DNA of 64,000 bases from Gemmatimonadota bacterium (GTDB taxonomy: Bacteria; Gemmatimonadota; Gemmatimonadetes; Gemmatimonadales; GWC2-71-9). The stretch's first letter is position 1. Every line of letters starts with the position of its first letter. Under the pieces are notes generated by a model. The model did not search any database. It was not told the origin of the DNA and saw nothing but the letters and a program-made list of their open reading frames with translations. The stretch is from assembly GCA_039588055.1 (NCBI GenBank), contig JBDHAN010000003.1, positions 8,249 to 72,248 on the forward strand, written 5' to 3'. A program made the translations under genes and the position numbers. Shown here piece by piece: positions 4,460 through 60,449 of this stretch.

Positions 4460-5605
4460 ATGAGTGACAGGAAGCGAGCGATTCTGGCAGGTCAGGCCAT
4501 CAGTCCGCGGCCGATCACAGGGACGGAGACCGTGGTTGAGCTGATGGACGACGCCTTTCTGGCCTACAATGCCGGTCGACTGCGCGAGGGGGCACAGCTC
4601 TTTGTCGAGCGGATGCTCGCCGGCGATGGCACCGTGGGTGTAAGTCTCACGGGTGCGATGACACCTGCGGGACTCGGCATGTCCTCGATCATTCCCCTCA
4701 TCGAAGCGGGATTCGTGGACTGGATCGTGTCGACCGGAGCGAACCTGTATCACGATTGCCACTTCGCGTTGGGGTTCTCCATGCATCGGGGCACCCCGTA
4801 CGCCGACGACATCGACCTGCGTGAGCAGGGCGTGGTGAGGATTTACGACGTTTTCTTCGATTATGCGGTGCTGCTGCAGACCGACGAGTTCCTGCGACGG
4901 GTCTCGCAGCAACAGGAGTTTCAGCGCAGCATGAGCTCGGCGGAGTACCACTACTTGTTGGGCAAGTACGTGCGGGCGCGCGAGCAGAAACTGGGACTCA
5001 CGCACAAGTCGCTCTTGGCGATCGCGTATGAACATGCCGTCCCCATCTACACATCGTCGCCAGGTGACTCCTCCATCGGTATGAACGTGGCGGAACTCCA
5101 ACTGGACGGCTATGCCCTGGCGTACGATGTCTCTGCTGATGTGAACGAGACCGCCGCCATCGTGCTGGATGCGAAGCGTGACGGCGGTACGAGCGGAGTG
5201 CTGATCATCGGTGGGGGCAGCCCCAAGAACTTTGTGCTCCAGACCGAGCCACAAATCCAGGAGGTGCTCGGCATCGAAGAGCGGGGCCACGACTACTATC
5301 TGCAGATCACTGACGCGCGCGTGGATACCGGCGGTCTCTCCGGTGCCACGCCGGCCGAAGCGGTGAGCTGGGGCAAAGTCGATCCGGACCAGCTACCGGA
5401 TGCCGTCGTGTGCTATCTCGACAGTACGGTGGGGCTGCCCCTCTTGGCCGCCTACGCGTTAGGGAAACGAAAGCCGCGTGCGCAGAAGCGGCTGTTCGAT
5501 CGACGCTCGGAGATGCTCGACCGTCTGCGCGCCGCGTATCATTCCGCGCGCGACTTTCGGGATCAACGCGCGCGGGGAGCGGCGCTTCCCGACGTCGACG
5601 CCTAG
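4460..5605 (+). CDS. Deoxyhypusine synthase-like protein (probable homospermidine synthesis, SpeY-like)
   Basis: [33 protein letters not shown] (active-site Lys). Confidence 0.88.
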
Positions 5606-19637: not shown

Positions 19638-22142
19638 ATGACCGAAACGAACGAACAGAACTCCTCGAAGGAAGCGCCAAAGACCGAAGCGCAAAAGACG
19701 CTGCCGGAACGCCAATCCAGCCGGCTGCGCCTTCCTGTGCTCCCTTTGCGGGAGACCGTAATGTTTCCCGGCGTGACGGCTCCGATTGGGGCTGGTCGGC
19801 CGCCCACGTTGCGTGCGATTGAAGCGGCGCTTCGCCGTGACGACAAACAGATTTTCGCAGTCGCGCAGCGAGACAACGTCGAACACGCCGAGCCTGAGGT
19901 GCTGTATACGACTGGGACGGTGGCGCGGGTCGGGCAAGTCCAACGGGGTCTCGGTGGAATCCAGTTGCTGCTCCACGGCGAGTATCGAGCGACGGTGCTT
20001 CAGTACTCGCAGGCGGAAAGTGGGTTTGTCGAAGCCGTCGTACAGGAGGCGCCGGACCTTCCGCCGCTCGATGCCGAAGATGCGGCCTTCGTCGCACTGC
20101 ACAAGGAGGTGCGCGAGCGAGCGGCCGAGCTCGGGCTCAAGATGGGGCTCCCACAGGAAGTGGTGCAGCAAGTACTGGAGGGCGTCGAGGAGCCCGGAGG
20201 GTTTGGTGACCTCGTCGCGGGATACATCGATATCACTCCGGCTGAGCGACAGGCGCTGCTAGAGACCCGCGGTGTCGAAGAGCGCCTCCGACGAGTCCTG
20301 ATCCACGTTCAACGGCAGCTTGCCCTGGCTGAGGCACAGGAGGAAATCAAGTCCAAGGTCCAGGAAGAGATCGGTGAGCGTCAGCGCGAGATGTTTCTCC
20401 GCGAACAACTCAAGGCGATTCGCAAGGAACTGGGTGACGACGACGCTGGCCAGGAAGTCGAGGAGCTGCGTGAACGAATCCTGAAGCTGGATCTGCCGGA
20501 GGGCGTACGTGAGGAAATCGAGCGAGAGTTGCGACGTCTCGAGCGCTCGTCGCGCGACTCCATGGAAGCACAGATCATTCGCACGTACCTCGAAACCGTG
20601 GTCGAGTTGCCCTGGAGCATCCGCAGTGAGGACCACCTCGACCTCAAAGAAGCGGCGACAATCCTAGACGAGGACCACTATGGGCTCCGCGAGGTGAAGG
20701 ATCGTGTGCTCGAGTTTTTGGCAGTACGTCAGCTTCTCAAGGTTCGTTCACCCAGTGAGCGCGTGAGCGGAGCGGTCGGCAATGAAGATGATCGCGGTAC
20801 CAAGGGATCGATCCTGCTCTTTATTGGGCCGCCCGGCGTGGGGAAGACCTCGATTGCCAAGTCAATTGCGCGTTCCATGAGTCGACGCTACATCCGGATC
20901 TCACTAGGCGGTGCTCGGGACGAGGCCGACATCCGCGGACATCGACGCACCTACGTGGGGGCGATGCCCGGTCGAATCATCGAAGGAATGAAGCGCGCCG
21001 GGACCAAGAACCCGGTCTTTCTGCTCGACGAAGTGGACAAACTTGGCGTGTCGTTCCAGGGTGATCCCGCGTCGGCACTGCTCGAAGTGCTCGACCCGGC
21101 GCAGAACGACTCGTTCACCGATCACTATATGGGAGTCCCCTTCGACCTCTCCGAAGTGTTGTTCATTGCCACGGCCAACTTCCGTCAGAACATCCCGATG
21201 CCGCTCCTCGACCGCATGGAGACGGTGGAATTCAGCGGGTACACCGAGCGTGACAAGCTTGCTATTGCCAAGCAATACCTCATCCCCCGCCAACTCGGTG
21301 AGAACGGACTCGGCGAACAGGAACTCACGCTGCGGGACGACGCGGTACACGCGCTGATTTCGGGGTACACGCGGGAGGCAGGGGTACGGCAGCTCGAACG
21401 CGAGATCGGGAAGATCGCCCGCAAGGTTGCGCGCAAGATCGCGACCAAGGACATCGACCGGCTCACGGTCGCGGCTGACGACGTGGCAGAATTGCTCGGT
21501 CGGGCGACGGTCCATCCTGAGCGCGCGGCCCGTGAAGATCAGGTGGGGATCGCCACGGGGATGTACTACACCCCCAGCGGCGGGGATATCATGTTCGTCG
21601 AGGTCTCAGTGACCAAAGGCCGGGATGCGCTCTTGCTGACCGGGCAACTGGGTGATGTGATGAAAGAGTCCGCCCAGGCGGCGTTGACGTACGCAAAGAC
21701 CTACGCGGATGAACTCGGCATTCCGCCGGAGGCGCTCACGGACAAGGACGTGCATATCCACGTTCCGGCAGGGGCCATTCCGAAAGACGGTCCCTCGGCA
21801 GGGGTCACTATGGCTACGGCGCTGGTGAGTGAGTTGTCCGGAGTGCCCATCCGGCACGATCTGGCTATGACGGGCGAGGTGACGCTGTCAGGCCGGGTGC
21901 TCCCCATTGGTGGCTTGAAGGAGAAGGTGCTTGGCGCCTGCCGGGCCGGGATCTTCAACATCATTCTCCCCAAGGAGAACCTGGCCGACCTGGAGGATCT
22001 GAGCGAGGAGGAGCGGCAGCGGATTCAGGTCCACGCGGTTGAGGGGCTGAAGGAAGTGCTGGAGATCGCGCTGCGGCCGAAGGGCCACGAAGGCGCCGAT
22101 TCCGACGTCGCTCGCCCCGTGCTGCAGCCAACCACGCCATAG
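19638..22142 (+). CDS. lon: ATP-dependent Lon protease
   Basis: LON_N domain, GPPGVGKT, LLDEVDK, PKDGPSAG (Ser), GLKEK (Lys). Confidence 0.97.
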   Translation: MTETNEQNSSKEAPKTEAQKTLPERQSSRLRLPVLPLRETVMFPGVTAPIGAGRPPTLRAIEAALRRDDKQIFAVAQRDNVEHAEPEVLYTTGTVARVGQVQRGLGGIQLLLHGEYRATVLQYSQAESGFVEAVVQEAPDLPPLDAEDAAFVALHKEVRERAAELGLKMGLPQEVVQQVLEGVEEPGGFGDLVAGYIDITPAERQALLETRGVEERLRRVLIHVQRQLALAEAQEEIKSKVQEEIGERQREMFLREQLKAIRKELGDDDAGQEVEELRERILKLDLPEGVREEIERELRRLERSSRDSMEAQIIRTYLETVVELPWSIRSEDHLDLKEAATILDEDHYGLREVKDRVLEFLAVRQLLKVRSPSERVSGAVGNEDDRGTKGSILLFIGPPGVGKTSIAKSIARSMSRRYIRISLGGARDEADIRGHRRTYVGAMPGRIIEGMKRAGTKNPVFLLDEVDKLGVSFQGDPASALLEVLDPAQNDSFTDHYMGVPFDLSEVLFIATANFRQNIPMPLLDRMETVEFSGYTERDKLAIAKQYLIPRQLGENGLGEQELTLRDDAVHALISGYTREAGVRQLEREIGKIARKVARKIATKDIDRLTVAADDVAELLGRATVHPERAAREDQVGIATGMYYTPSGGDIMFVEVSVTKGRDALLLTGQLGDVMKESAQAALTYAKTYADELGIPPEALTDKDVHIHVPAGAIPKDGPSAGVTMATALVSELSGVPIRHDLAMTGEVTLSGRVLPIGGLKEKVLGACRAGIFNIILPKENLADLEDLSEEERQRIQVHAVEGLKEVLEIALRPKGHEGADSDVARPVLQPTTP

Positions 22143-22158
22143 CGGGACTGGATCGAGG

Positions 22159-22740
22159 TTACCAGGTCAGCGAGCCGAACAATCCGGAGAGCGCGTCCTC
22201 GATTGCCGGGGCCGGGTCTGACTCGGCGGATTCGAGCCCCAGGACGGGTCGGAGCGTCAAAAAGCCAAGCACGATGACGAGCGCCCGTTCGGCAACGCGT
22301 GCCGGATCGATGTCATCGCGAACAAATCCGAGCCCCTGCCCTTTCGAAATCTCGGCAGCGAGAGCCTTAGAGAATCGCCGCACCGCATCTCGGGCTGGTG
22401 CCCCTTCGGGGCCCGGCTCCTGGATGCCACGGATCAGCATGCGAAGTTGACTCGGATGCTGTGAGAGAGCAGTGAGCGTGGCGGTAAGGCGCCGGCGGAC
22501 CTTCTCAACCGGGTTTCGGGGGGCGGGAGCGCTGCTGGGCGCGAGATGCTGAGCAGCGTCGAGCAGTAGTTCCTCGTACAGCTGGGCCTTTGAACCGAAA
22601 TAGTAGTAGAGCAGTTGCTTGTTGGCTCTGGCCCGCTTGGCAATCCTGTCTGTTCTCCCTCCATGAAACCCGAATTCGGCAAACTCCCCACGGGCGGCCT
22701 CAGCGATACGGAGGCGTGTTTCCTGATCCGCTCTGGCCAT
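22159..22740 (-). CDS. TetR/AcrR family regulator
   Basis: HTH: IAKRARANKQLLYYYFGSKAQLY. Confidence 0.92.
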   Translation of the reverse strand: MARADQETRLRIAEAARGEFAEFGFHGGRTDRIAKRARANKQLLYYYFGSKAQLYEELLLDAAQHLAPSSAPAPRNPVEKVRRRLTATLTALSQHPSQLRMLIRGIQEPGPEGAPARDAVRRFSKALAAEISKGQGLGFVRDDIDPARVAERALVIVLGFLTLRPVLGLESAESDPAPAIEDALSGLFGSLTW

Positions 22741-22750
22741 TTGTGCTCAA

Positions 22751-22762
22751 CCAACCGGTTGG
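22751..22762. promoter_or_regulatory. Probable TetR autoregulatory operator CCAACCGGTTGG
   Basis: Perfect 12-bp palindrome 10 nt upstream of the tetR start. Confidence 0.7.
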
Positions 22763-22805
22763 ATACAAAGCAAAGATGCTGTGTGATGGCTTGTACAGCA
22801 AGCGG

Positions 22806-23504
22806 TTACGCCGTGACGGCCTCGAGGGCTGCACGCGTCGCTCCCACGAGTGTCGCGTCTGACGACCAGAGCCCCGTGAGATCGCCGTCGTGGATCCTTC
22901 CCATCCCCGCGGCTTCCCCTGCTGTGAGAAGCACCGCTGGGCTGCCAAAATGTCTGACAACCCGGTCGAGAGGAACCGTGCCGGCAATGGGAATTGGAAA
23001 GGACGTCGTCGGCTCGTCCCCGAGCGCCCAGATGCGACTCTCGCTTCCGTCGGCCTGGCGCTTCCGCCAGATCGGAAGCAGTGCTGAGAGCACCGTGGTG
23101 GGTGCGACGCAATGCACGCCGCCGCTCTCCCGTGTGACGACACGGAGGGCGATTGCATAGAACTCTCGTTCTCCGGCGAAGTGGGCGGTCGCGGAGTCGC
23201 CGGTCAGGGTCCTCAGGGCGGCCATTTGTCCTTCGAGCTCGTCCAGCTTCGCGGCCTCGTCCCGAGCAATCTTCGCCAACAGCGCGTCGGGCCGGATCGG
23301 ACGGTATACCTGAGGGTCCTCGCCGCTCACGCTGGCTGCTTCCTTTGCAACGAGACCCTTCAGGGCCTGATAGGCGTTCGCTCGGGCAATGGAGAGGGTG
23401 CCGCCAACTGCATACCCCGACGAAGGGCCCATCTCAAGGAGTGTACTGTAGGCAAGCGATTCGGTTTGCGTGAAGCCGAAAGGCGTAAGATCCACGGAAT
23501 CCAT
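22806..23504 (-). CDS. TrmB family transcriptional regulator
   Basis: FGFTQTESLAY, SGYAVG, RANAYQAL..LVAK winged HTH followed by an effector domain. Start at 23504 or 23516. Confidence 0.85.
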   Translation of the reverse strand: MDSVDLTPFGFTQTESLAYSTLLEMGPSSGYAVGGTLSIARANAYQALKGLVAKEAASVSGEDPQVYRPIRPDALLAKIARDEAAKLDELEGQMAALRTLTGDSATAHFAGEREFYAIALRVVTRESGGVHCVAPTTVLSALLPIWRKRQADGSESRIWALGDEPTTSFPIPIAGTVPLDRVVRHFGSPAVLLTAGEAAGMGRIHDGDLTGLWSSDATLVGATRAALEAVTA

Positions 23505-23507
23505 AGT

Positions 23508-23523
23508 AGTAGTCATCGCTACT
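23508..23523. promoter_or_regulatory. Candidate TrmB operator AGTAG-N6-CTACT
   Basis: AT-rich inverted repeat directly at the trmB start region. Confidence 0.45.
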
Positions 23524-23820
23524 TTGAAATATGCCTATCTCGCGGCCATCTGCCAAGCAATTTGGAATCGACGCACACGGGTGTCGGCCTGCTGCCTTGC
23601 ATTTGGCGAGGGAGCGGTGACCTGTCAGACGCCAGAAAGATATCACCCAGCCCCGCTCCACCCCCGGAGTTTGCTGGCTTCATGGCCAAGAACGGTCAAG
23701 CAGAATGTGCTGAGTGCCAGGGGAATCAAGTAGGAACCGAATTGTGTGGTGGAGGTGTCACCCGACGCGGCGCAATGAACAGTTGGCCTGACAGGAGGAA
23801 TGGGCCGAAATAAGGCATCG

Positions 23821-23876
23821 GTATCATGATACTTTCATGTCAGTCACGTGTAACTATCACGACAGTATCGTGATAC
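23821..23876. repeat. Five tandem 11-bp units, each a TNNCRYGNNA quasi-palindrome
   Basis: gtatcatgata|ctttcatgtca|gtcacgtgtaa|ctatcacgaca|gtatcgtgata|c. Confidence 0.8.
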
Positions 23877-23879
23877 TGC

Positions 23880-24325
23880 GTTCACCGCGCTGTTGGGCGC
23901 CGTCTCGGCATCAGAGACTGGACAGCAAGGCCGGCCAGTGATGAGAGCGTGATCGCAGGAACCAGGAGAGGTCGAACGCCCCTCACTGGCGACGTACCGG
24001 CCAAGGAGAAAGGAGCCATCGGGGTGGGTACTTGGAGAAAACGATGGTCCTCATATGGTCATGCTGTCTGGTTCATGTATTAGTTGTGATAACAACTCAT
24101 GCACCCCACCTTAGGAGCGCTCAGATGGCGGGACCTTCGTGGGTGCATGGAGGGTGGCGATCGAGTTGGACGGTTGTTGGGGTCGGGTTCAGGGGGAGGC
24201 GAGACTGGAGTGGACGGCGCGCTGGCCAAGTGGCCAGTGGCCACTGCTTAGTGGGGGTTGGCTGGGTGGAGGAGAAGACGCCGGCTGTGGTGAGAGCCTC
24301 CTAAGCGGGGAGTGAGAGTTTCAGG
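23880..24325. ncRNA. Putative structured non-coding RNA(s), family unknown
   Basis: No credible ORF. Stems at 23934-41/23983-90, 24011-21/24042-51 and 24110-17/24298-305; many GGA motifs. Confidence 0.5.
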
Positions 24326-24346
24326 ACTAAGTCGGATTTACTGGCA

Positions 24347-24401
24347 CTGTCGTGAAAGTGACGTGTAAGTGTGGTGAATGTGTTGTGAACGTGTCGCGCC
24401 G
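24347..24401. repeat. Five tandem 11-bp units related to the 23821 array
   Basis: ctgtcgtgaaa|gtgacgtgtaa|gtgtggtgaat|gtgttgtgaac|gtgtcgcgccg. Confidence 0.75.
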
Positions 24402-24435
24402 GTGGCGAAAACGGGGTTGGTCGGCCGGTTTGGCG

Positions 24436-25542
24436 TCAGACGTACTCGAGTTCCCAACCGGCGAGCCTCGCGATGAAGGCGAGCCGGAAGGTCACGTCTG
24501 CTTGGCGCTGCTCGATGGTCTTACCTTCCTCCTCGAGCGGGAACGCGAAATCGGTGAGCTTCGATGGACTTTTCGGGATGGTCCGCAAGTTCTTGGGGCT
24601 CCAAATGCCGCGCCCGTCGCATTCTCGGAGGAGGCGTCCCATGATCCGTTGCGCGACGGGAGACGCATCCAGCATTCCCAACCGCGCCAACAGCTCAATC
24701 CAGTGCAAGGCGAACGGCAGGTCCTTCGGATTGCCTGCGCTGTCCGCTTTCAGCGGATCGCCAAGGAAGTGAAAGACGGGCTTGATTACCTTGCGGCCGA
24801 GTGGGATCACGTAGGTGCGCTTCGTTTCCGGCTTGCCCAGGAAATGTCCGAGACGCTCGGCGAAGCCCGCCCGCTCACGCTGCATGTTCGGCAGGTACGC
24901 AACGACGGCCACCGAAAAGAGGGTCGGTGGATAGGCGTCGGGGTGCAAGATGTTGCGCGACGCCCTCCGAATTATTGGCTTCTCGGCCAGTTCGCTCCGG
25001 AGGAACTGCGAAACGCGGGACCCGATTCGGTGCGCGGCGCCGCGAACGCGCGGATCGTCGATGTGGCCCCCCTGTGCAAGTGCCGCGGTGGCCGCTTCGT
25101 GAAAGAGACCGCGCGCCCAGGGTCCCAAGGCAGGGTTGGTTTTGGCCGCCTTCTGATGCTCGAACAGGAGTGTCGGCGAGTCATCCCGCGACAAAAGTCT
25201 GAAAAACACCCTCTCGGCAAGCCGCAACGGGCGATCCCCACCCGACAGGCCAAGTTCGACCAGGTGGCGGTATTGCGACACTGTGCCGACATCTTTGACG
25301 CCTTGGGCCTTCGAGGGTGCCAATCCCAGCATGTTGCCGGCCCAGACACCGGAAGGCTTCTGTTTCTTCAGTGTCTGCGTAACTGCTTTGTATTGTGAGA
25401 CTTCCACCTTGAGATCAGCCATGTCGTCAGGGCTGGCCGAGCCTGGCGGGAGGATGTCTCTTACCGTGCGCCATCTGATGGCCGCACACGCATGCTCTCG
25501 AAGCCAAGTGACGGGGACGCGGTGGCTGCCTGGCAGTTCCAG
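24436..25542 (-). CDS. Hypothetical protein, possibly a prenyltransferase/squalene-cyclase-like alpha barrel
   Basis: QKPSGVW and DGRGIW are QW-like repeats. AGGAG lies 8 nt before a CTG at 25542. Confidence 0.7.
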   Translation of the reverse strand: MELPGSHRVPVTWLREHACAAIRWRTVRDILPPGSASPDDMADLKVEVSQYKAVTQTLKKQKPSGVWAGNMLGLAPSKAQGVKDVGTVSQYRHLVELGLSGGDRPLRLAERVFFRLLSRDDSPTLLFEHQKAAKTNPALGPWARGLFHEAATAALAQGGHIDDPRVRGAAHRIGSRVSQFLRSELAEKPIIRRASRNILHPDAYPPTLFSVAVVAYLPNMQRERAGFAERLGHFLGKPETKRTYVIPLGRKVIKPVFHFLGDPLKADSAGNPKDLPFALHWIELLARLGMLDASPVAQRIMGRLLRECDGRGIWSPKNLRTIPKSPSKLTDFAFPLEEEGKTIEQRQADVTFRLAFIARLAGWELEYV

Positions 25543-25633
25543 CTGATCAACTCCTGAAGGGGGCCGATTGTGGGCGCGGCAAATTAGCTGTTTCGCGGTG
25601 GATCGGCCAGAGGGAAAACCCTTCGTCTGGGTA

Positions 25634-27271
25634 CTATCTGGATACGGAACCCCGAAGCCGGCGGAGTCTGAGTTGATCACCCGCGGCCCTGAACTCGGAG
25701 TCGGTCTTCCACGAAGGGTATTCCGAGGTCGCTGCGAGCATCCAGCCCAGCCGGATGACCAGCCGCACCTGTGCGAGCAGGCCGGCCAGCGCGAAACCCA
25801 CGGCATACTCATCTGACGGCATGTGGTACCGGAGGGCTCTCCCCGTGTTGGCTCCGTGCACGAGCACCGCTGGGACACCTGCCTCCGCGAACGGCAAATG
25901 GTCGCTGGTGAAGAATCCAGCTGCCTGGTCAATGCTCTCCGATCCCAGGCTCAGCTGCTCCCGTTCCGCTGCTGCCGCCAGGTAGGGCGCCAGGTCTGAG
26001 CGAAGCAGGCCGTTGGCAACAATGTCTGTTGCCTGCTCCCTCGAGCTGCCCTGATCGAGATTGACGACTGCCGCAACCCGCTCGAGCGGGACCAACGCCG
26101 AGTCGATCAACGCCCGAGCACCGAGATAGCCGGACTCCGCTCCGGTCGTGGCGAGAAACAGGAGTGATCGGCGCGGGGCCTCGCGGCTCGCGGCAACACC
26201 GGTCGCCACACCCAGAAGGGCCGCAACCCCCGACGCGTTGTCTCTCGCCCCATTGTAGATCGAATCGCCCCCTACCGGCCGGCCAACCCCAAGGTGATCG
26301 AAATGCGACATGATGATGACCCACTCGTGCGCGAGGTCGGTACCCGGCACCACAGCGAGCACGTTGGCGCTCTTTCGTGGCACAAGCGCGCTGCGGATGC
26401 GCATGACGGCGTGCGCATCCATGGAGATCGGCCGAAAACCCCGCTCTCCTGCGCGGCGGACGAGCAGGTCGAAGTCGCGTCCCGATTCCTCCGCGATTCG
26501 CCGCGCGGCGTCTTCGGTGATCCAAGCGGCAAACCGAAGGTTGCTTTCCCGCGGACGGTCAAGGAAGTAGCGCTCGCTCCCAAAGGTGTTTGCCACTACC
26601 TCCCATGACGTCCAGTGGGCGGCGGCGTTTCGATGAACGAGGAGAACACCGGCGGCCCCCATCCGCGCGGCCTGATCGACCTTGTACTGCCAGGTCGCGT
26701 AGCGAGTCGTCAGCGGACCAGCAAACGTGGTGCTGTCCGTTGTTGGCTCGTCCTCCAATACGAGCAGGACGCTTCCTGTGAGTGAGGACGTTTTGAAATC
26801 GTCCCAATTCCACTCCGGGGCGCGAACGCCGTGACCGACAAATACGATGTCACCGTCCGCAGTGACAGTGGACAACGCCCTCGTCGGCCATGCAACGAAG
26901 TCGACCCAGGGCTCGAGGCTCACTGTCTGCCTGCGCGCTCCAATGACCAGCGCCGGCTCAGCGCGCGCACCGATGAGCGAGATCGACTGGTAGAACGAGC
27001 CGTCTGGGCCGCCGCCCTCGAATCCCAGTGCCTCGAATACTGTCGCGATGTAATGCGCAGCTAACTCCCCACCTCGAGTACCCGGCGCTCGGCCTTCGAG
27101 GAGGTCGTGGGAGAGCATCCGGACGTGCGCTCGGAGCAGCGCCTCGGTTGGCGCGCTGAGCGCCCGCTCAAGGGCCGGTCCTTGATCCCGACGGTCCTGT
27201 GCGTGCGCTGTCGACGGCAGTGTGACCGACAGGCCGATGAGCATCGGAAGGGCAGGGAGGAGCGCCCTCAT
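25634..27271 (-). CDS. Secreted M28 family peptidase with PA domain (catalytic Glu appears substituted)
   Basis: Signal peptide, EGRAPGT, SHFDH, DNASG, NLD, SDH, YHMPSD. Confidence 0.88.
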   Translation of the reverse strand: MRALLPALPMLIGLSVTLPSTAHAQDRRDQGPALERALSAPTEALLRAHVRMLSHDLLEGRAPGTRGGELAAHYIATVFEALGFEGGGPDGSFYQSISLIGARAEPALVIGARRQTVSLEPWVDFVAWPTRALSTVTADGDIVFVGHGVRAPEWNWDDFKTSSLTGSVLLVLEDEPTTDSTTFAGPLTTRYATWQYKVDQAARMGAAGVLLVHRNAAAHWTSWEVVANTFGSERYFLDRPRESNLRFAAWITEDAARRIAEESGRDFDLLVRRAGERGFRPISMDAHAVMRIRSALVPRKSANVLAVVPGTDLAHEWVIIMSHFDHLGVGRPVGGDSIYNGARDNASGVAALLGVATGVAASREAPRRSLLFLATTGAESGYLGARALIDSALVPLERVAAVVNLDQGSSREQATDIVANGLLRSDLAPYLAAAAEREQLSLGSESIDQAAGFFTSDHLPFAEAGVPAVLVHGANTGRALRYHMPSDEYAVGFALAGLLAQVRLVIRLGWMLAATSEYPSWKTDSEFRAAGDQLRLRRLRGSVSR

Positions 27272-34823: not shown

Positions 34824-37385
34824 ATGAGCCAACGCTCTCACATCCGCGATCACTTCCTCCCGCCGGATCCGGAGGCGTATCGTCGTGCGGAGCCCGCGAC
34901 AGGCCGCATCATTGTCATTGCGCCCACCCGCGCCGCATGCGAAACCATTGAACGGGCCTGTCACCTTAGGATTGAAACCGTGTTGGAGCGAGAGCACGGT
35001 GTGGAGATCCGCGAGTTGGCGCGGCGCGGTGTCGGGTTTGGCATGGTCGCGGGAACCGGAACCGGAAAGACCCTTGCCATCCGTCCGATTGCCGAGGAAA
35101 CGCTCGGCGTTCCACTCAAGATCGGCGTTGTGAATCGGGAGCGCGAAGCGACACCTGACACGCCAACATGGAATGTCGTGATCGTGACCACGGGTATTGC
35201 GCGCCGGTGGTTCCAGGACGAGCTCATTCTCCCGCAGGACACGCTGGTCGCGGACGAGATCCATCAGACGTCCGCGGAGCTCGAGCTGTGCCTCGCGCTC
35301 GGAAAGCGCGTCGGGTGTCGGTTCATATGGCTGTCGGCAACGGTCGACCCGAGCTTCTACGCCGAATACCTGGACTCCGCCGAGGTGCTCCTCACCACGG
35401 CCTTCGATCCGTCCCGTGCGGCCCGCGTGCGGACGCGGAAAGAGGAGCCGGTTCAGTTTCTGGACGACCGTTTCATTCACAGAGCGGTGAAACAGAACCG
35501 GGGTGTCGCGGTCTTCCTGCCAACTCGGGCCGAGGTCGAAGCTGCGTCAAACGAGATCGGCGAGCGTTGGCCGGCGCTCAACGCCGCGTTCTACCACGGC
35601 GGCGAGCCAATCAGGGTGATGCAGCCCTTTCTCGATGGCGAGGCGGAGAGGCCGTTCGTTCTCGTCATGACGCAGGCAGGTCAGTCGGCCCTGAATATTC
35701 ACGGCCTCGATACGGTCGTGGTGTACGATGCGTGCTACAAGAACCAGGTGCAGCGAGGGCGCAATGTGCTCGCCAGGCAGTACCTGGGGCCCAACGAGAT
35801 TCTGCAAATGGCTGGTCGAGTCCATGGCAGGGTGGCCAACGGCGAGGTCTATATCCTGACCGACCGGGACATCGATTTCTTCGCGCTCGAACCGGTGCCC
35901 CCGGACTTTCAGCTCGCCGGTGACAGCGAGCGGGTCGCACTCACTGCCGCCGCCCTCGGTGTTGATCTCGTACAACTGGACCTGCCGGTCCCGCTAGATC
36001 GGCAAGCCTACCAGGTGGCCGTGCAACGGCTCGAGCAGCGGGGGATCATCGCAGAAGGGCGGCTCACCCGTTACGGGCGAGACGTCGAGGCGATGCCGGT
36101 CGATCGTGCGTGGGGCGAGCTGCTCGTCAATGCGGACCAGGACCTGCTCCCCTACGTCGCCGCTATGGCCAACATCGATTCACTCCACCGCATGACGAGA
36201 GACGAACCAGAACTTCATGGGCTTGTCGTCTACGGGAGCGATCATCTGACCGCCTACAACGTGTACGCTGAGGCCGTGAGCCAGTATGGACACCTAGGCG
36301 AGGTCTACGGTCTCCCGCGACACCTGTTTGGGGAGGATATCGACGAGTGGTCGGAAGATCGTGGTGTGCTGGTCAAGGCGATCGAAGATGTGGCGCTCGG
36401 CATGGCCTCTGTGTATCGCACGTTGGAATTACCGCTTCCGGTGTCGCTGCCGCGGGCGAGTCGAGGAGTGCTGCGCGCCTTTCAGGCCTTGCTTGTGCGC
36501 ACCATGCCGTTCGATCTCGTGGTGGAAGGTGAAACGGCCTCGGGTGATCGGGTCCGATTGTCGGATTCCTCGGTGTGTGAGCGGCGGGGCGCGATCGCCG
36601 GCGAGATCCGCTACTTCGCGGACCGCTTCGGTGTGCCTCGTGGTGCCATGGAGGGCACAGCAATCCCGTTCGAGCTCATCAAGCGCTACGCGGTTCGCGG
36701 AGAGCCGGCACTGGAAGTGCGTGAGGGTCGCCGCCGGACTGCGCTGTATGTCATGCGAACCACCGAGTACCACGGGTTCGTGCTAGATAGTGAAAGGCGT
36801 GTCCTGGACGACACGTTTCCGACAGAACTTGCCGAGCAAGCACGGACGGCCCTCGGCCGCGCCCTCATGTCCGGCGTGAGCCCCCACCCGAACGCGGCCA
36901 GTGTGAGTCGTGCCACCCGCCGCCTTGACGAGTACTGGCGTCGGTCCGGCGGGGAGCTACACGAAGCGGGTTCGGAGCGTGTTCGCACGTTGATCGTGGA
37001 GCAGCTCGCGGGAGTGTCGAGCTGGGAGGAATTCCTGGAGGTGCCGGTCGAGCTGAACGTCGACGCGGTCGTCCCCAGCGAATGGCGAGCCTCGCTCGAT
37101 GCGTTGCCGTCGTCGGCAACGGTCTTTGGCGACCGCGTGCCGCTCTCGTACGAAGTCGAGGGAGACGCGGGTGTCGTGCGACTACGTCTGCGCGAAAAGC
37201 GGGCCCGCCGACTCCGCGCTCAGCACTTACCAGACACGGGCCGACCCCTCCGGTTCAGCGTGGTGCGTGGGCGGCGCGACGTGATCCGGGCGACCTCGCT
37301 CGAGGAAATGCACGAGGCACTCGCCAAGTTGCCGGCGCGCGGACGGCGAGAGCAACGTGGAGGGCGTCGACGACGCCGTCGCTAG
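34824..37385 (+). CDS. HrpB-like DExH-box helicase
   Basis: GTGTGKT, DEIH, SAT, FLPT, QMAGRVHGR and an HrpB-like C-terminus. Confidence 0.85.
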   Translation: MSQRSHIRDHFLPPDPEAYRRAEPATGRIIVIAPTRAACETIERACHLRIETVLEREHGVEIRELARRGVGFGMVAGTGTGKTLAIRPIAEETLGVPLKIGVVNREREATPDTPTWNVVIVTTGIARRWFQDELILPQDTLVADEIHQTSAELELCLALGKRVGCRFIWLSATVDPSFYAEYLDSAEVLLTTAFDPSRAARVRTRKEEPVQFLDDRFIHRAVKQNRGVAVFLPTRAEVEAASNEIGERWPALNAAFYHGGEPIRVMQPFLDGEAERPFVLVMTQAGQSALNIHGLDTVVVYDACYKNQVQRGRNVLARQYLGPNEILQMAGRVHGRVANGEVYILTDRDIDFFALEPVPPDFQLAGDSERVALTAAALGVDLVQLDLPVPLDRQAYQVAVQRLEQRGIIAEGRLTRYGRDVEAMPVDRAWGELLVNADQDLLPYVAAMANIDSLHRMTRDEPELHGLVVYGSDHLTAYNVYAEAVSQYGHLGEVYGLPRHLFGEDIDEWSEDRGVLVKAIEDVALGMASVYRTLELPLPVSLPRASRGVLRAFQALLVRTMPFDLVVEGETASGDRVRLSDSSVCERRGAIAGEIRYFADRFGVPRGAMEGTAIPFELIKRYAVRGEPALEVREGRRRTALYVMRTTEYHGFVLDSERRVLDDTFPTELAEQARTALGRALMSGVSPHPNAASVSRATRRLDEYWRRSGGELHEAGSERVRTLIVEQLAGVSSWEEFLEVPVELNVDAVVPSEWRASLDALPSSATVFGDRVPLSYEVEGDAGVVRLRLREKRARRLRAQHLPDTGRPLRFSVVRGRRDVIRATSLEEMHEALAKLPARGRREQRGGRRRRRR

Positions 37386-58227: not shown

Positions 58228-59184
58228 ATGCGCAATCTACTTCCATTCCAAAGACATGGCGGCGGGCTCATCGCCTTGGGGTTCATGATCGTTGCCGTGC
58301 CGCTCCTGCAGGCGTGCGGACCCAATCCCGAAACCATGGAAGAGCTGCAGGCCGCGGTGGAATCCCGTATCGCCGAAAGCGATGCCGAGACGGTCGGCTT
58401 CTACTTCCGGAGCCTCCGCACGACGGATGACACGCTGTTTCTGGACGCGGACGCGCGGATGCACGCGGCCAGCATGATGAAAGTCCCAGTCATGATCCAG
58501 TTGTATCGTGATCACGAGGCGGGTAGGCTCGACTTGGACGACAGTCTCGCGATCGCCACGACCTTCACGTCAATCGTCGATGGGTCGGAATACGAGTTGA
58601 GTGCCGCCGACGACAGTGACAGCACGCTCTACGCACGCGTTGGTGAGTCGGAGTCGATCCGATCGCTCATGGAGCGCATGATTACGGTCTCGAGCAATCT
58701 TGCCACGAACATGCTGATCGCACTCGTTGATGCGAATCGCGTCCAGGCATACATGGAGGAGCTTGGTGCAGACTCGATCGCTGTATTGCGAGGCGTCGAA
58801 GACACCAAGGCCTATGAAGCCGGTCTCAACAACACGACGACTGCGCGAGCCCTGGGAGCCGTATTTGAGGCAATCGTGGGTGGCCGGGCGGCGTCGGAGG
58901 AGGCGTGTCGCGAGATGGTCGATGTACTCTCTCGACAGCAGTTCAATGACGGAATCCCCGCCGGGCTACCGCGGAGGGTCAGGGTGGCACACAAGACCGG
59001 CTCGATCACGGAGATCGAACACGACGGAGGGATCGTCTATGAAAGGGATGATCCCGTCCACATCCTCGTGATTCTGGTAGAGGGGATTGCCGACGAGGAC
59101 GATGCCAACCAATTGATTGCCGATTTGTCACGGATGGTCTGGAGGTTTGCGTCGCGCGAGCCCGCTGTCCCGACGCAGGAGTGA
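58228..59184 (+). CDS. Class A beta-lactamase-like serine hydrolase, lipoprotein
   Basis: Lipobox LQAC, SMMK, SSN, HKTG. Start 58228 or 58285. Confidence 0.88.
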   Translation: MRNLLPFQRHGGGLIALGFMIVAVPLLQACGPNPETMEELQAAVESRIAESDAETVGFYFRSLRTTDDTLFLDADARMHAASMMKVPVMIQLYRDHEAGRLDLDDSLAIATTFTSIVDGSEYELSAADDSDSTLYARVGESESIRSLMERMITVSSNLATNMLIALVDANRVQAYMEELGADSIAVLRGVEDTKAYEAGLNNTTTARALGAVFEAIVGGRAASEEACREMVDVLSRQQFNDGIPAGLPRRVRVAHKTGSITEIEHDGGIVYERDDPVHILVILVEGIADEDDANQLIADLSRMVWRFASREPAVPTQE

Positions 59185-59228
59185 CAGCACCGGTCACTCC
59201 TGTCGTACTCCTCGAAGCTCCGCCTAGA

Positions 59229-60449
59229 ATGGTTCGATCGTATCACTTCGTTGTTCTGATCCTACTCGCAGCAGCTTGCCAAAGTGCTGGCGAAGTTACA
59301 GAAGATCCTCCGGATACACCTGGAGACCTGTTCGGAACACAACCCCGGCCCGCCTATACAGCCATAAGCAGTCGATGGATCGAACAGGAGAGCATATCCG
59401 GTAGCGAAGTGTTCAGCACCAATAGTGACCACATCTTAAAAGACGGAGAACCCTTCTTCGTTAGAGGGATCGTCTACGTTCCCGGATATCCTGGTCACCT
59501 ACCCTGGGATACAGAAATTGCAGCTTCTCTTCCTGAGAAACTGAGAAATAGTATCGACAGGGATTTGGCCCAGATCTCATCATTGGGGGCCAATACCGTA
59601 AGACTCTGGGGTGCTCCGAGATATTGTTATGAGGCAATAAAGCAGATCGGCAATCTGTTCTTCATACAGACCTTGTGGATAGACAGTGAAGTCGGCGATC
59701 TACATGATCCACAGTTCAAGGAAGACACAAAGGCCTACATAAGGAGTGTTATTGACAGGATCTACATCGTATACGCTGACATCCAGCCGCCGCTGATAGC
59801 CTATCTCGTAGGTAACGAACTGAGCGAGTCCACTATTCGCGCCACAAATACCAGTCACACCGAACTAAGTAGCTATTCGGGCAGCCACATCACCACAGGG
59901 AACAACCTCAACCCTTCGGAAGTCTTCCTCGCTGAAATGGCCGATTACGTAAAGGAATATGAGCACAGCACCTATGGCGTTACGCATTTAGTGTCCTATT
60001 CCAACGATATTCGAACCGCGGATCTCATCGATACTCCGTTTCTCGATTTCAGAAGCCACAATACCTACTCGTATGCCGTACCCTACTACAGGCCCGGCAC
60101 CTCCCCCGGAAGTGTCTCAGGAACAGTCTTGCAGGGTTGGATCGAGGAATTGAAATCGAGGCACCCTGATCTTCCGTTGCTTATAACAGAGACAGGATTG
60201 AGTGTATCACCCAATGCGCCGCATATTGGTCCGCCCAACTATGGCTATGGAGGTAACACGGAATCCGAACAAAGTGCGGGCCTGCTCCAGAACATCGCTG
60301 ACGCGGAAACCTCTCAATTTCCTAATGCAGGCGTAGTCATTCATGAGCTCCTTGATGCCTGGTGGAAATTCGGACTTGAAGATTCACATTCTCAAGATCC
60401 GAACGATATAGAGGAGTGGTTTGGTATTGTCAGGCTAGGAGGTGGTTGA
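59229..60449 (+). CDS. Lipoprotein glycoside hydrolase, clan GH-A TIM barrel
   Basis: Lipobox AAAC, GANTVRLW, GNE (acid/base), ITETG (nucleophile), EEWFGI. Confidence 0.8.
   Translation: MVRSYHFVVLILLAAACQSAGEVTEDPPDTPGDLFGTQPRPAYTAISSRWIEQESISGSEVFSTNSDHILKDGEPFFVRGIVYVPGYPGHLPWDTEIAASLPEKLRNSIDRDLAQISSLGANTVRLWGAPRYCYEAIKQIGNLFFIQTLWIDSEVGDLHDPQFKEDTKAYIRSVIDRIYIVYADIQPPLIAYLVGNELSESTIRATNTSHTELSSYSGSHITTGNNLNPSEVFLAEMADYVKEYEHSTYGVTHLVSYSNDIRTADLIDTPFLDFRSHNTYSYAVPYYRPGTSPGSVSGTVLQGWIEELKSRHPDLPLLITETGLSVSPNAPHIGPPNYGYGGNTESEQSAGLLQNIADAETSQFPNAGVVIHELLDAWWKFGLEDSHSQDPNDIEEWFGIVRLGGG

Follow-up and report, generated by a model that had tools for sequence, protein, structure and literature searches.

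Organization of the locus

The DNA is derived from a metagenome-assembled genome (MAG) of Gemmatimonadota (2.94 Mb in 142 contigs, 78% complete, GC content 0.636). The stretch that we analysed, which is called the window in this paper, is 64,000 nucleotides long and lies on an 82.8-kb contig, C3. The features around the trmB gene are as follows, with the analysis behind each one in parentheses.

19638-22142, + strand: Lon gene (ORF list and Pfam)
22159-22740, - strand: TetR-family gene, tetR (ORF list and Pfam)
22806-23516, - strand: TrmB-family gene, trmB (ORF list and Pfam)
23505-23525, no strand: palindrome abutting the trmB start, core AGTAG-N6-CTACT (sequence read beside the spacers of relatives)
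23517-24435, no strand: gene-free spacer of 919 nt, from the stop of the hypothetical gene to the trmB start (ORF list, Pfam and codon-position GC)
23528-23556, - strand: proximal trmB promoter-like site (consensus scan and comparison by eye with the spacers of relatives)
23560-24435, no strand: lineage-specific insert of about 875 nt (left limit approximate, put at the end of the proximal trmB promoter)
23821-23876, no strand: left array, five 11-bp units, a 56-nt quasi-palindrome (self-match, palindrome and matrix analyses)
23826-23854, - strand: sigma-70-like -35/-10 pair within the left array, reading toward trmB (consensus scan)
23877-24346, no strand: 470-nt core that separates the arrays; from about 24100 its + strand is rich in G, and it has no conserved gene or known RNA
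24347-24401, - strand: right array, direct repeats of which four units are good and one is degenerate; they agree with the family consensus when read on the - strand
24436-25557, - strand: conserved hypothetical gene, upstream of trmB (ORF list and Pfam)

Besides Lon, tetR, trmB and the hypothetical gene, the neighbourhood possesses a fifth gene, which encodes an M28 peptidase. The product of the hypothetical gene has no relative in Pfam, NCBIfam or PDB. The region between this gene and trmB is the only stretch of at least 250 nt in the window without a long open reading frame (ORF) of gene-like codon-position GC. An earlier reading made from the letters alone (the sequence-only reading) had called it the sole large non-coding gap of the window and had placed it directly upstream of the trmB-tetR pair, and both statements agree with our gene map. 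The gap is real, although its reported extent (23821-24401) was too small: the measured one is 23517-24435. Moreover, alignment with relatives suggests that the true trmB start is the ATG at 23502-23504. If trmB begins at this ATG, which is used by the relatives, the gene-free spacer is 23505-24435.

The N-terminal domain of the TrmB protein (residues 10-99) gave its best score with the NCBI TrmBL1 model; this score (E 1.7e-9) stayed well under the cut-off of the model. The recognition-helix region of TrmB is conserved with relatives. In the relatives inspected (the spacers of L027-L058), the AGTAG-N6-CTACT palindrome abuts the trmB start codon and is often lengthened by triplet repeats. This palindrome, which is intact in the window, is presumably the autoregulatory operator of TrmB itself. 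The relatives also possess a trmB promoter-like site at the position matching 23528-23556, with a -35-like hexamer about 35-40 nt upstream; this hexamer, too, is intact in the window. Furthermore, the 65 nt between trmB and tetR contain a perfect 12-nt palindrome (22751-22762) immediately before the tetR start; it is likely to be a TetR operator. Because the TrmB operator and recognition helix are typical of the family and a separate palindrome is present between trmB and tetR, neither trmB nor tetR needs the arrays described below. Elsewhere in the window, an ORF of 422 amino acids (59181-60449, + strand) shows atypically low GC at all codon positions (0.55/0.44/0.51) and is possibly a recently acquired gene.

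Two related arrays with an 11-bp period

The sequence-only reading had described two arrays of five 11-bp units each. By reading the sequence, we confirmed the coordinates of both arrays and the matches that had been quoted between them (10/11 and, for a reverse complement, 11/12). The period and the relatedness hold for both arrays; however, the fifth unit of the right array is degenerate and the left array is not a simple direct repeat. The number of self-matches at a lag of 11 nt is 24/45 in the left array and 30/44 in the right array, and the background in all 55-nt windows of the assembly is 11.4 of 44 on average (sd 3.0). The value of the left array is reached by 299 and that of the right array by 18 of 2,928,600 such windows. 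Indeed, the right array, the end of which is 34 nt from the stop codon of the hypothetical gene, is the most 11-bp-periodic place in the assembly: it has 32 matches and the runner-up has 27 (46 clusters have at least 24). Tandem Repeats Finder (TRF) detects the right array only (period 11, 3.9 copies, 78% matches, score 37).

The left array has a different architecture. Its arms are 78% complementary and it carries 12-nt palindromes at 23821-23832 and 23865-23876, 44 bp apart. We read its letters as five overlapping 14-bp palindromes with 11-bp spacing. When folded as single-stranded DNA, the left array gave a z value of -2.85 and none of 200 shuffled sequences was as good.

The two arrays belong to one family, as had been proposed from their shared sequence. 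When a matrix was trained on each array and 5.86 million positions were scanned, each array was the best non-self match of the other in the assembly. The cross-matrix score was 31.8, compared with a background of -48.8 (sd 11.3), and the reciprocal score was 30.4, compared with 18.7 for the next locus. Local alignment of one array with the other gave a score of 32 in the direct orientation, which was equalled by 1 of 300 shuffles, and 34 in the inverted orientation, which was equalled by none of 300. Thus, the relatedness of the two flanks is supported by the reciprocal matrices and by alignment in both orientations. The ten units yield the consensus TTTCACGACAC, in which two columns are invariant; the mean identity of the units to the consensus is about 74%. 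The units of the right array match this consensus on the - strand, whereas those of the left array match it on the + strand and, because they are palindromic, less well on the other strand. The differences among the units show the distribution over columns that uniform decay would produce (the observed variance was equalled by 7200 of 20000 permutations). Therefore, no position-specific selection is visible in the units. The starts of the arrays are 526 bp apart, which is about 50 turns at 10.5 bp per turn.

A promoter-like pair of hexamers lies within the left array. This pair matches the consensus at 9 of 12 positions with a 17-nt spacer, and its -10 hexamer is inside the first 12-nt palindrome; it is a consensus match only. 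The scan found 2 promoter-like sites in the region, compared with 0.3 (sd 0.6) in shuffled sequences, and none at the right array, after which there is no -10 hexamer. On the + strand of the left array, a weaker, mirror-image promoter-like arrangement can be read by eye.

The arrays lie in a lineage-specific insert

The gene string of the hypothetical gene, trmB and tetR is conserved among relatives. In all nine loci from the genus and the sister genus, the orthologue of the hypothetical gene (61-72% identity) reaches to about 50 nt from trmB. Of 35 loci taken from named Gemmatimonadota MAGs, 31 retain the hypothetical gene and trmB in the same orientation; this set and the nine loci are not independent and some genomes may be in both. 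By an alignment-based measure, 22 of these 31 syntenic loci have a spacer of 54-91 nt and the other 9 have one of 108-470 nt, compared with 923 nt in the window. The nine expanded spacers have no homology to that of the window (local alignment z from -1.1 to 1.3) and do not show the 11-bp period (the best lag-11 score is 13-19 of 44). Because the spacers of the relatives are shorter and possess neither homology nor an 11-bp array, the segment of about 875 nt is a lineage-specific orphan. The sequence-only reading had proposed a test for conservation of the arrays in the syntenic interval and had named their absence from relatives among the outcomes that would refute it. This outcome was found in every relative available: the arrays are absent from all nine genus and sister-genus loci and likewise from each of the nine expanded spacers in the set of 31.

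We searched for the spacer more widely. There was no second copy or homologue in the rest of the assembly, and tblastx against the loci of the relatives and the assembly likewise gave none. There was no match in 41 relatives, and none in plasmids and phages. In nine genus genomes, there were just matches of 22-28 nt (E 0.006-0.03), and in 201 family genomes, in which two candidates were scored per genome, there was one match of 30 nt (E 8e-4).

In public sequencing data, one DNA run, and no RNA run among those listed, contains a small share of the stretch. Its contigs cover 23508-23753 and 43 nt of the hypothetical gene. The 250-nt contig from this independent sediment run, which spans the trmB-insert junction (23508-23753), has 11 differences from the window. 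Therefore, the junction is not an assembly artefact. A related strain (95.5% identity) thus retains at least 23560-23753.

The spacer between the hypothetical gene and trmB is a variable spot in the family. In one relative (L032), the spacer (5116-5586) contains instead a small membrane-protein ORF of about 100 amino acids; its N-terminus is hydrophobic and it is read in the direction opposite to trmB.

These observations bear on the idea that the insert is a neutral relic without present function, either a decaying mobile or plasmid-like fragment (with subterminal repeats, or an iteron or centromere block) or repeats born by slippage. A single-copy orphan within conserved synteny, repeats that decay uniformly and the lack of a homologue in any of the genomes, plasmids or phages searched are consistent with such an origin. 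The units of both arrays point inward, as they do at multi-site transposon ends: in transposons with subterminal transposase-binding repeats, and in their gene-less derivatives, inward-facing repeat blocks likewise bound the segment, which is here gene-free and missing from relatives. However, the insert is single-copy and has neither a matching transposase nor, when read by eye, a target-site duplication or a clean terminal inverted repeat at either limit. The assembly contains no rve-type transposase, and its integrases are on other contigs only, none on C3, although the 78% completeness could hide a partner. In addition, about 260 nt of the insert are outside the part bounded by the arrays, the direct alignment of the arrays is as good as the inverted one, and the strain with 95.5% identity has kept at least 23560-23753. 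We regard a functionless relic as possible but doubtful, and nearly as likely as arrays that bind protein.

Coding, RNA and terminator signals in the spacer

The GC content of the spacer is mostly 0.47-0.67 in windows of 100 nt, compared with 0.636 for the genome. The sequence-only reading had regarded the core as RNA-like with multiple stems, and had proposed an unannotated RNA locus between two flanks bound by one protein. The fold of the 470-nt core barely beats that of shuffled sequences: on the + strand z was -2.28 and 2 of 100 shuffles were as good, and on the - strand z was -1.32 and 11 of 100 were as good. In windows of 120 nt, only the left palindrome stands out, with z values of -3.9 and -3.7 on the two strands. 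The signal is therefore clear only for the left DNA palindrome, and support for the structured core of the earlier description is weak. The region 24080-24320 of the + strand shows a moderate signal (z from -2.0 to -2.5), and the 300 nt to the left show none. Rfam gave no match over 22500-25500 at E values up to 1 and none over the whole window at the gathering score, and ARAGORN found no tRNA or tmRNA. For an analysis of covariation, the core has no homologue to align.

Codon-position GC periodicity is absent across 23520-24420 and clear in both flanking genes. The longest ORFs in the spacer encode 90 amino acids or are antisense to trmB. The ORF at 24032-24304 has GC contents of 0.60/0.56/0.61 by codon position. 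A ribosome-binding-site-like motif precedes the ORF when it is read from 24044 (24044-24304). Among 1.84 billion protein representatives, the sole match to this ORF was its own gene call of 59 amino acids, which is identical to residues 28-86. The small ORFs of the spacer have no family matches. Thus, what speaks for an RNA or small-protein locus between two operator arrays is the moderate fold of the + strand at 24080-24320, the 59-amino-acid ORF predicted by the gene caller and the weaker promoter-like mirror image that the left array shows on its + strand. These points are opposed by the empty Rfam search, the z value of only -2.28 for the whole core, an ORF that has neither a homologue nor a codon-position GC signal, and the lack of a terminator. 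Such a locus is improbable.

Rho loads onto C-rich, G-poor, unstructured RNA with pyrimidine-C dinucleotides. On the sense (-) strand, the C/G ratio is 2.3 in 24100-24435, and it exceeds 1 in all nine expanded spacers of the relatives (1.13-2.92). At 24240-24439, the folding energy per 120 nt is -15 to -23 kcal/mol for RNA of the - strand, compared with -37 to -44 kcal/mol for the + strand. The right array, which is inside this zone, provides a pyrimidine-C dinucleotide about once per 11 nt on the - strand, and no intrinsic terminator was predicted in the region (0 sites). These features would fit an RNA-level signal in that half of the spacer which adjoins the hypothetical gene, namely a Rho-dependent terminator or an insulator. 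However, the resemblance to a terminator of this type (C-rich, G-poor and weakly structured RNA 3' of a gene) is one of composition only. Moreover, the palindromic left array and the reciprocal best matching of the arrays are left unexplained, and a spacer of 54-91 nt suffices in most relatives. We consider it unlikely that the arrays are accounted for in this way; the right half may nonetheless act as a Rho-type terminator alongside them.

Search for further arrays

The sequence-only reading had suggested a scan of the genome with an 11-bp matrix. No second site was found: the best four-unit score elsewhere was 15.1, compared with more than 50 at the arrays. Since this matrix was trained on the arrays themselves, only the absence of other sites is informative, and it applies to an assembly that is 78% complete. 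In 401 genomes of the order, the four-unit pattern with up to 3 mismatches gave 27 matches in 23 genomes. The reversed control gave about 33 matches, a like rate, and therefore the order-wide matches are background.

Several look-alikes were nevertheless inspected. Downstream of uvrA in genome G088, 17 of 18 bases match across the palindrome and the next unit. In two genomes of different families, the spacer between the divergent genes for RNase D and a thioesterase/alpha-beta-hydrolase fusion contains an array of three to four 11-bp units (L069, G352:C10 about 37150-37210; L083, G062:C31 about 130080-130130), and one of these units is identical to unit 4 of the left array. Upstream of an SPFH/Band 7 gene, there is a conserved promoter-like site composed of a -35 hexamer, a 17-nt spacer and the -10 hexamer of the left array, with phased repeats of this last hexamer. 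This site was found in four genomes of the order (L066, L067, L070 and L084) and in the source assembly itself (C5, about 26330-26390). The look-alikes of the order (L082, the L069/L083 array and the SPFH promoters) were rejected as kin of the locus, their neighbours being unrelated.

A pattern of two palindromes was also searched in metagenomes and matched 22 contigs with a GC content of 0.34-0.54 (L089-L110). These low-GC contigs carry the 12-nt palindrome known from the left array either within tandem satellites of 44 bp or in a different conserved element that is rich in its pentamer. Both are unrelated to the locus. In addition, scattered over the source assembly are many short arrays, rich in G (or in C), that repeat about every 8 nt, for example at C1:5029, C1:41498, C16:28161, C41:11725, C70:3064, C117:1874 and C89:7893, which form a separate repeat family.

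Comparison with known systems

The arrangement resembles the parC site of plasmid R1. As described for R1 (PMC2241845), parC has two sets of five 11-bp iterons, each iteron being bound by one ParR dimer; the sets are 39 bp apart in a 159-bp site, flank and repress a promoter, and are followed by parM and parR. Here there are also two sets of five 11-bp units. In contrast to R1, the left set is quasi-palindromic, the fifth unit of the right set is degenerate, and the sets are separated by 470 bp rather than 39 bp. The neighbours also differ: they encode TrmB, TetR and a protein that belongs to no recognized family, and there is no adjacent parM or parR. A search with StbA_N (ParM-type) gave no match in the assembly, nor in any control genome, so that this negative result carries little weight.

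Binding sites of OmpR/PhoB-type regulators are similar in that the right array is head-to-tail with an 11-bp period, and the assembly encodes four OmpR-type regulators, which together with two TrmB-type regulators are its candidate DNA binders. The differences are that here no -10 hexamer follows the right array and that the left array has a symmetric layout. Three same-genus genomes (L126, L131 and L133) have, upstream of pstS, three 11-bp-phased repeats with a -10-like hexamer 9 nt further on; these repeats are a candidate Pho box of the genus. Their unit is different from that of the arrays in the window, and pstS was not found in the 78%-complete source assembly.

Another idea is that the arrays are an expanded operator of the adjacent TrmB-family regulator. 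According to PMC4158304, archaeal TrmBL1 binds TATCAC-N5-GTGATA, the Thermococcales glycolytic motif, in which the half-sites start 11 bp apart. Both hexamers are present in the left array (TATCAC at 23855-23860 and GTGATA at 23870-23875), in an 11-bp register and beside a trmB gene, the product of which scores best with the TrmBL1 model in its N-terminal domain. However, the hexamers are separated by 9 nt in the array, not by the 5 nt of the archaeal motif, and arrays are missing from relatives whose recognition helix is the same. Furthermore, the family-typical palindrome at the trmB start is intact. An operator of this kind is very unlikely.

A chromosomal ParB site was considered, as the array unit resembles a half-site and the only ParB gene is on the same contig, about 27 kb away. 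This candidate was rejected: the best match in the spacer to the palindrome of the genome itself has 5 mismatches, as do 429 other places. About 4 kb before the start of the window, there are two 16-bp palindromes 82 bp apart (C3:4081-4096 and C3:4163-4178), one perfect and the other with a single mismatched pair. Both palindromes, which probably represent the chromosomal ParB sites, are situated about 1.1 kb upstream of the only ParB_N match in the assembly (C3:5209-5487). Because these palindromes and the ParB_N match precede it, the window lies in the parB-proximal region. A replication origin, which was among the possibilities raised in the sequence-only reading, was also rejected as unlikely. 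GC skew does not switch: each of the 20 bins of 4 kb that span the 82.8-kb contig has a positive value.

Discussion

In this study, we found that about 875 nt of non-coding DNA, either foreign or newly arisen, has been inserted into the normally short spacer between the hypothetical gene and trmB, and that it bears two diverged copies of one 11-bp tandem-repeat array. The insertion, the arrays with their kinship and their uniqueness in the assembly, and the absence of a coding or known-RNA signal are established by the data, whereas binding of a protein, use of the promoter, looping and a foreign origin are inferences. Our preferred explanation, which we put forward tentatively and with a confidence well short of even, is that the insert is acquired DNA with arrays of the iteron or operator type, and that both arrays are cooperative sites for one sequence-specific DNA-binding protein. 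The 11-bp phase is compatible with cooperative protein binding, as had been proposed from the repeats. With one unit per helical turn, all the sites would be on the same face of the helix, and the five overlapping palindromes of the left array would suit a chain of dimers. The left array overlies the promoter-like pair aimed at trmB, so that its occupancy would close this promoter, if it is used. For the right array, two roles are conceivable: an accessory site that allows looping, or simply the opposite end of the acquired module. Against binding by a protein, the arrays are not conserved in relatives, there is no second site in the assembly, and there is no adjacent partner gene. The uniform decay of the units, the background rate of the order-wide matches and the fact that neither neighbouring gene needs the arrays speak against it as well.

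A more elaborate possibility can be drawn by analogy with plasmid R1. An oligomerizing protein, possibly the TrmBL1-like neighbour, might coat both arrays and loop the 0.5-kb core, and thereby gate a second, distal promoter of trmB-tetR together with an orphan transcript. In other words, the 5+5 design of R1 parC would be re-used as a two-array nucleoprotein switch. We consider this a long shot. If it were true, the 5+5 iteron design of plasmid R1 would serve gene control in an uncultured Gemmatimonadota bacterium.

If the insert is a relic, it tells us only that this point of a conserved gene string varies. Relatives do not share the feature, and the organism is represented by no more than a MAG; as long as neither a culture nor close relatives are at hand, the finding is more of a curiosity than an advance that can be tested. 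Should the arrays bind a protein, they would provide a short, unique DNA bait for retrieving the binder. Gene regulation in the phylum Gemmatimonadota is almost unstudied, and arrays that bind a protein would be a clean natural case of a phased-repeat module newly inserted beside a regulator operon.
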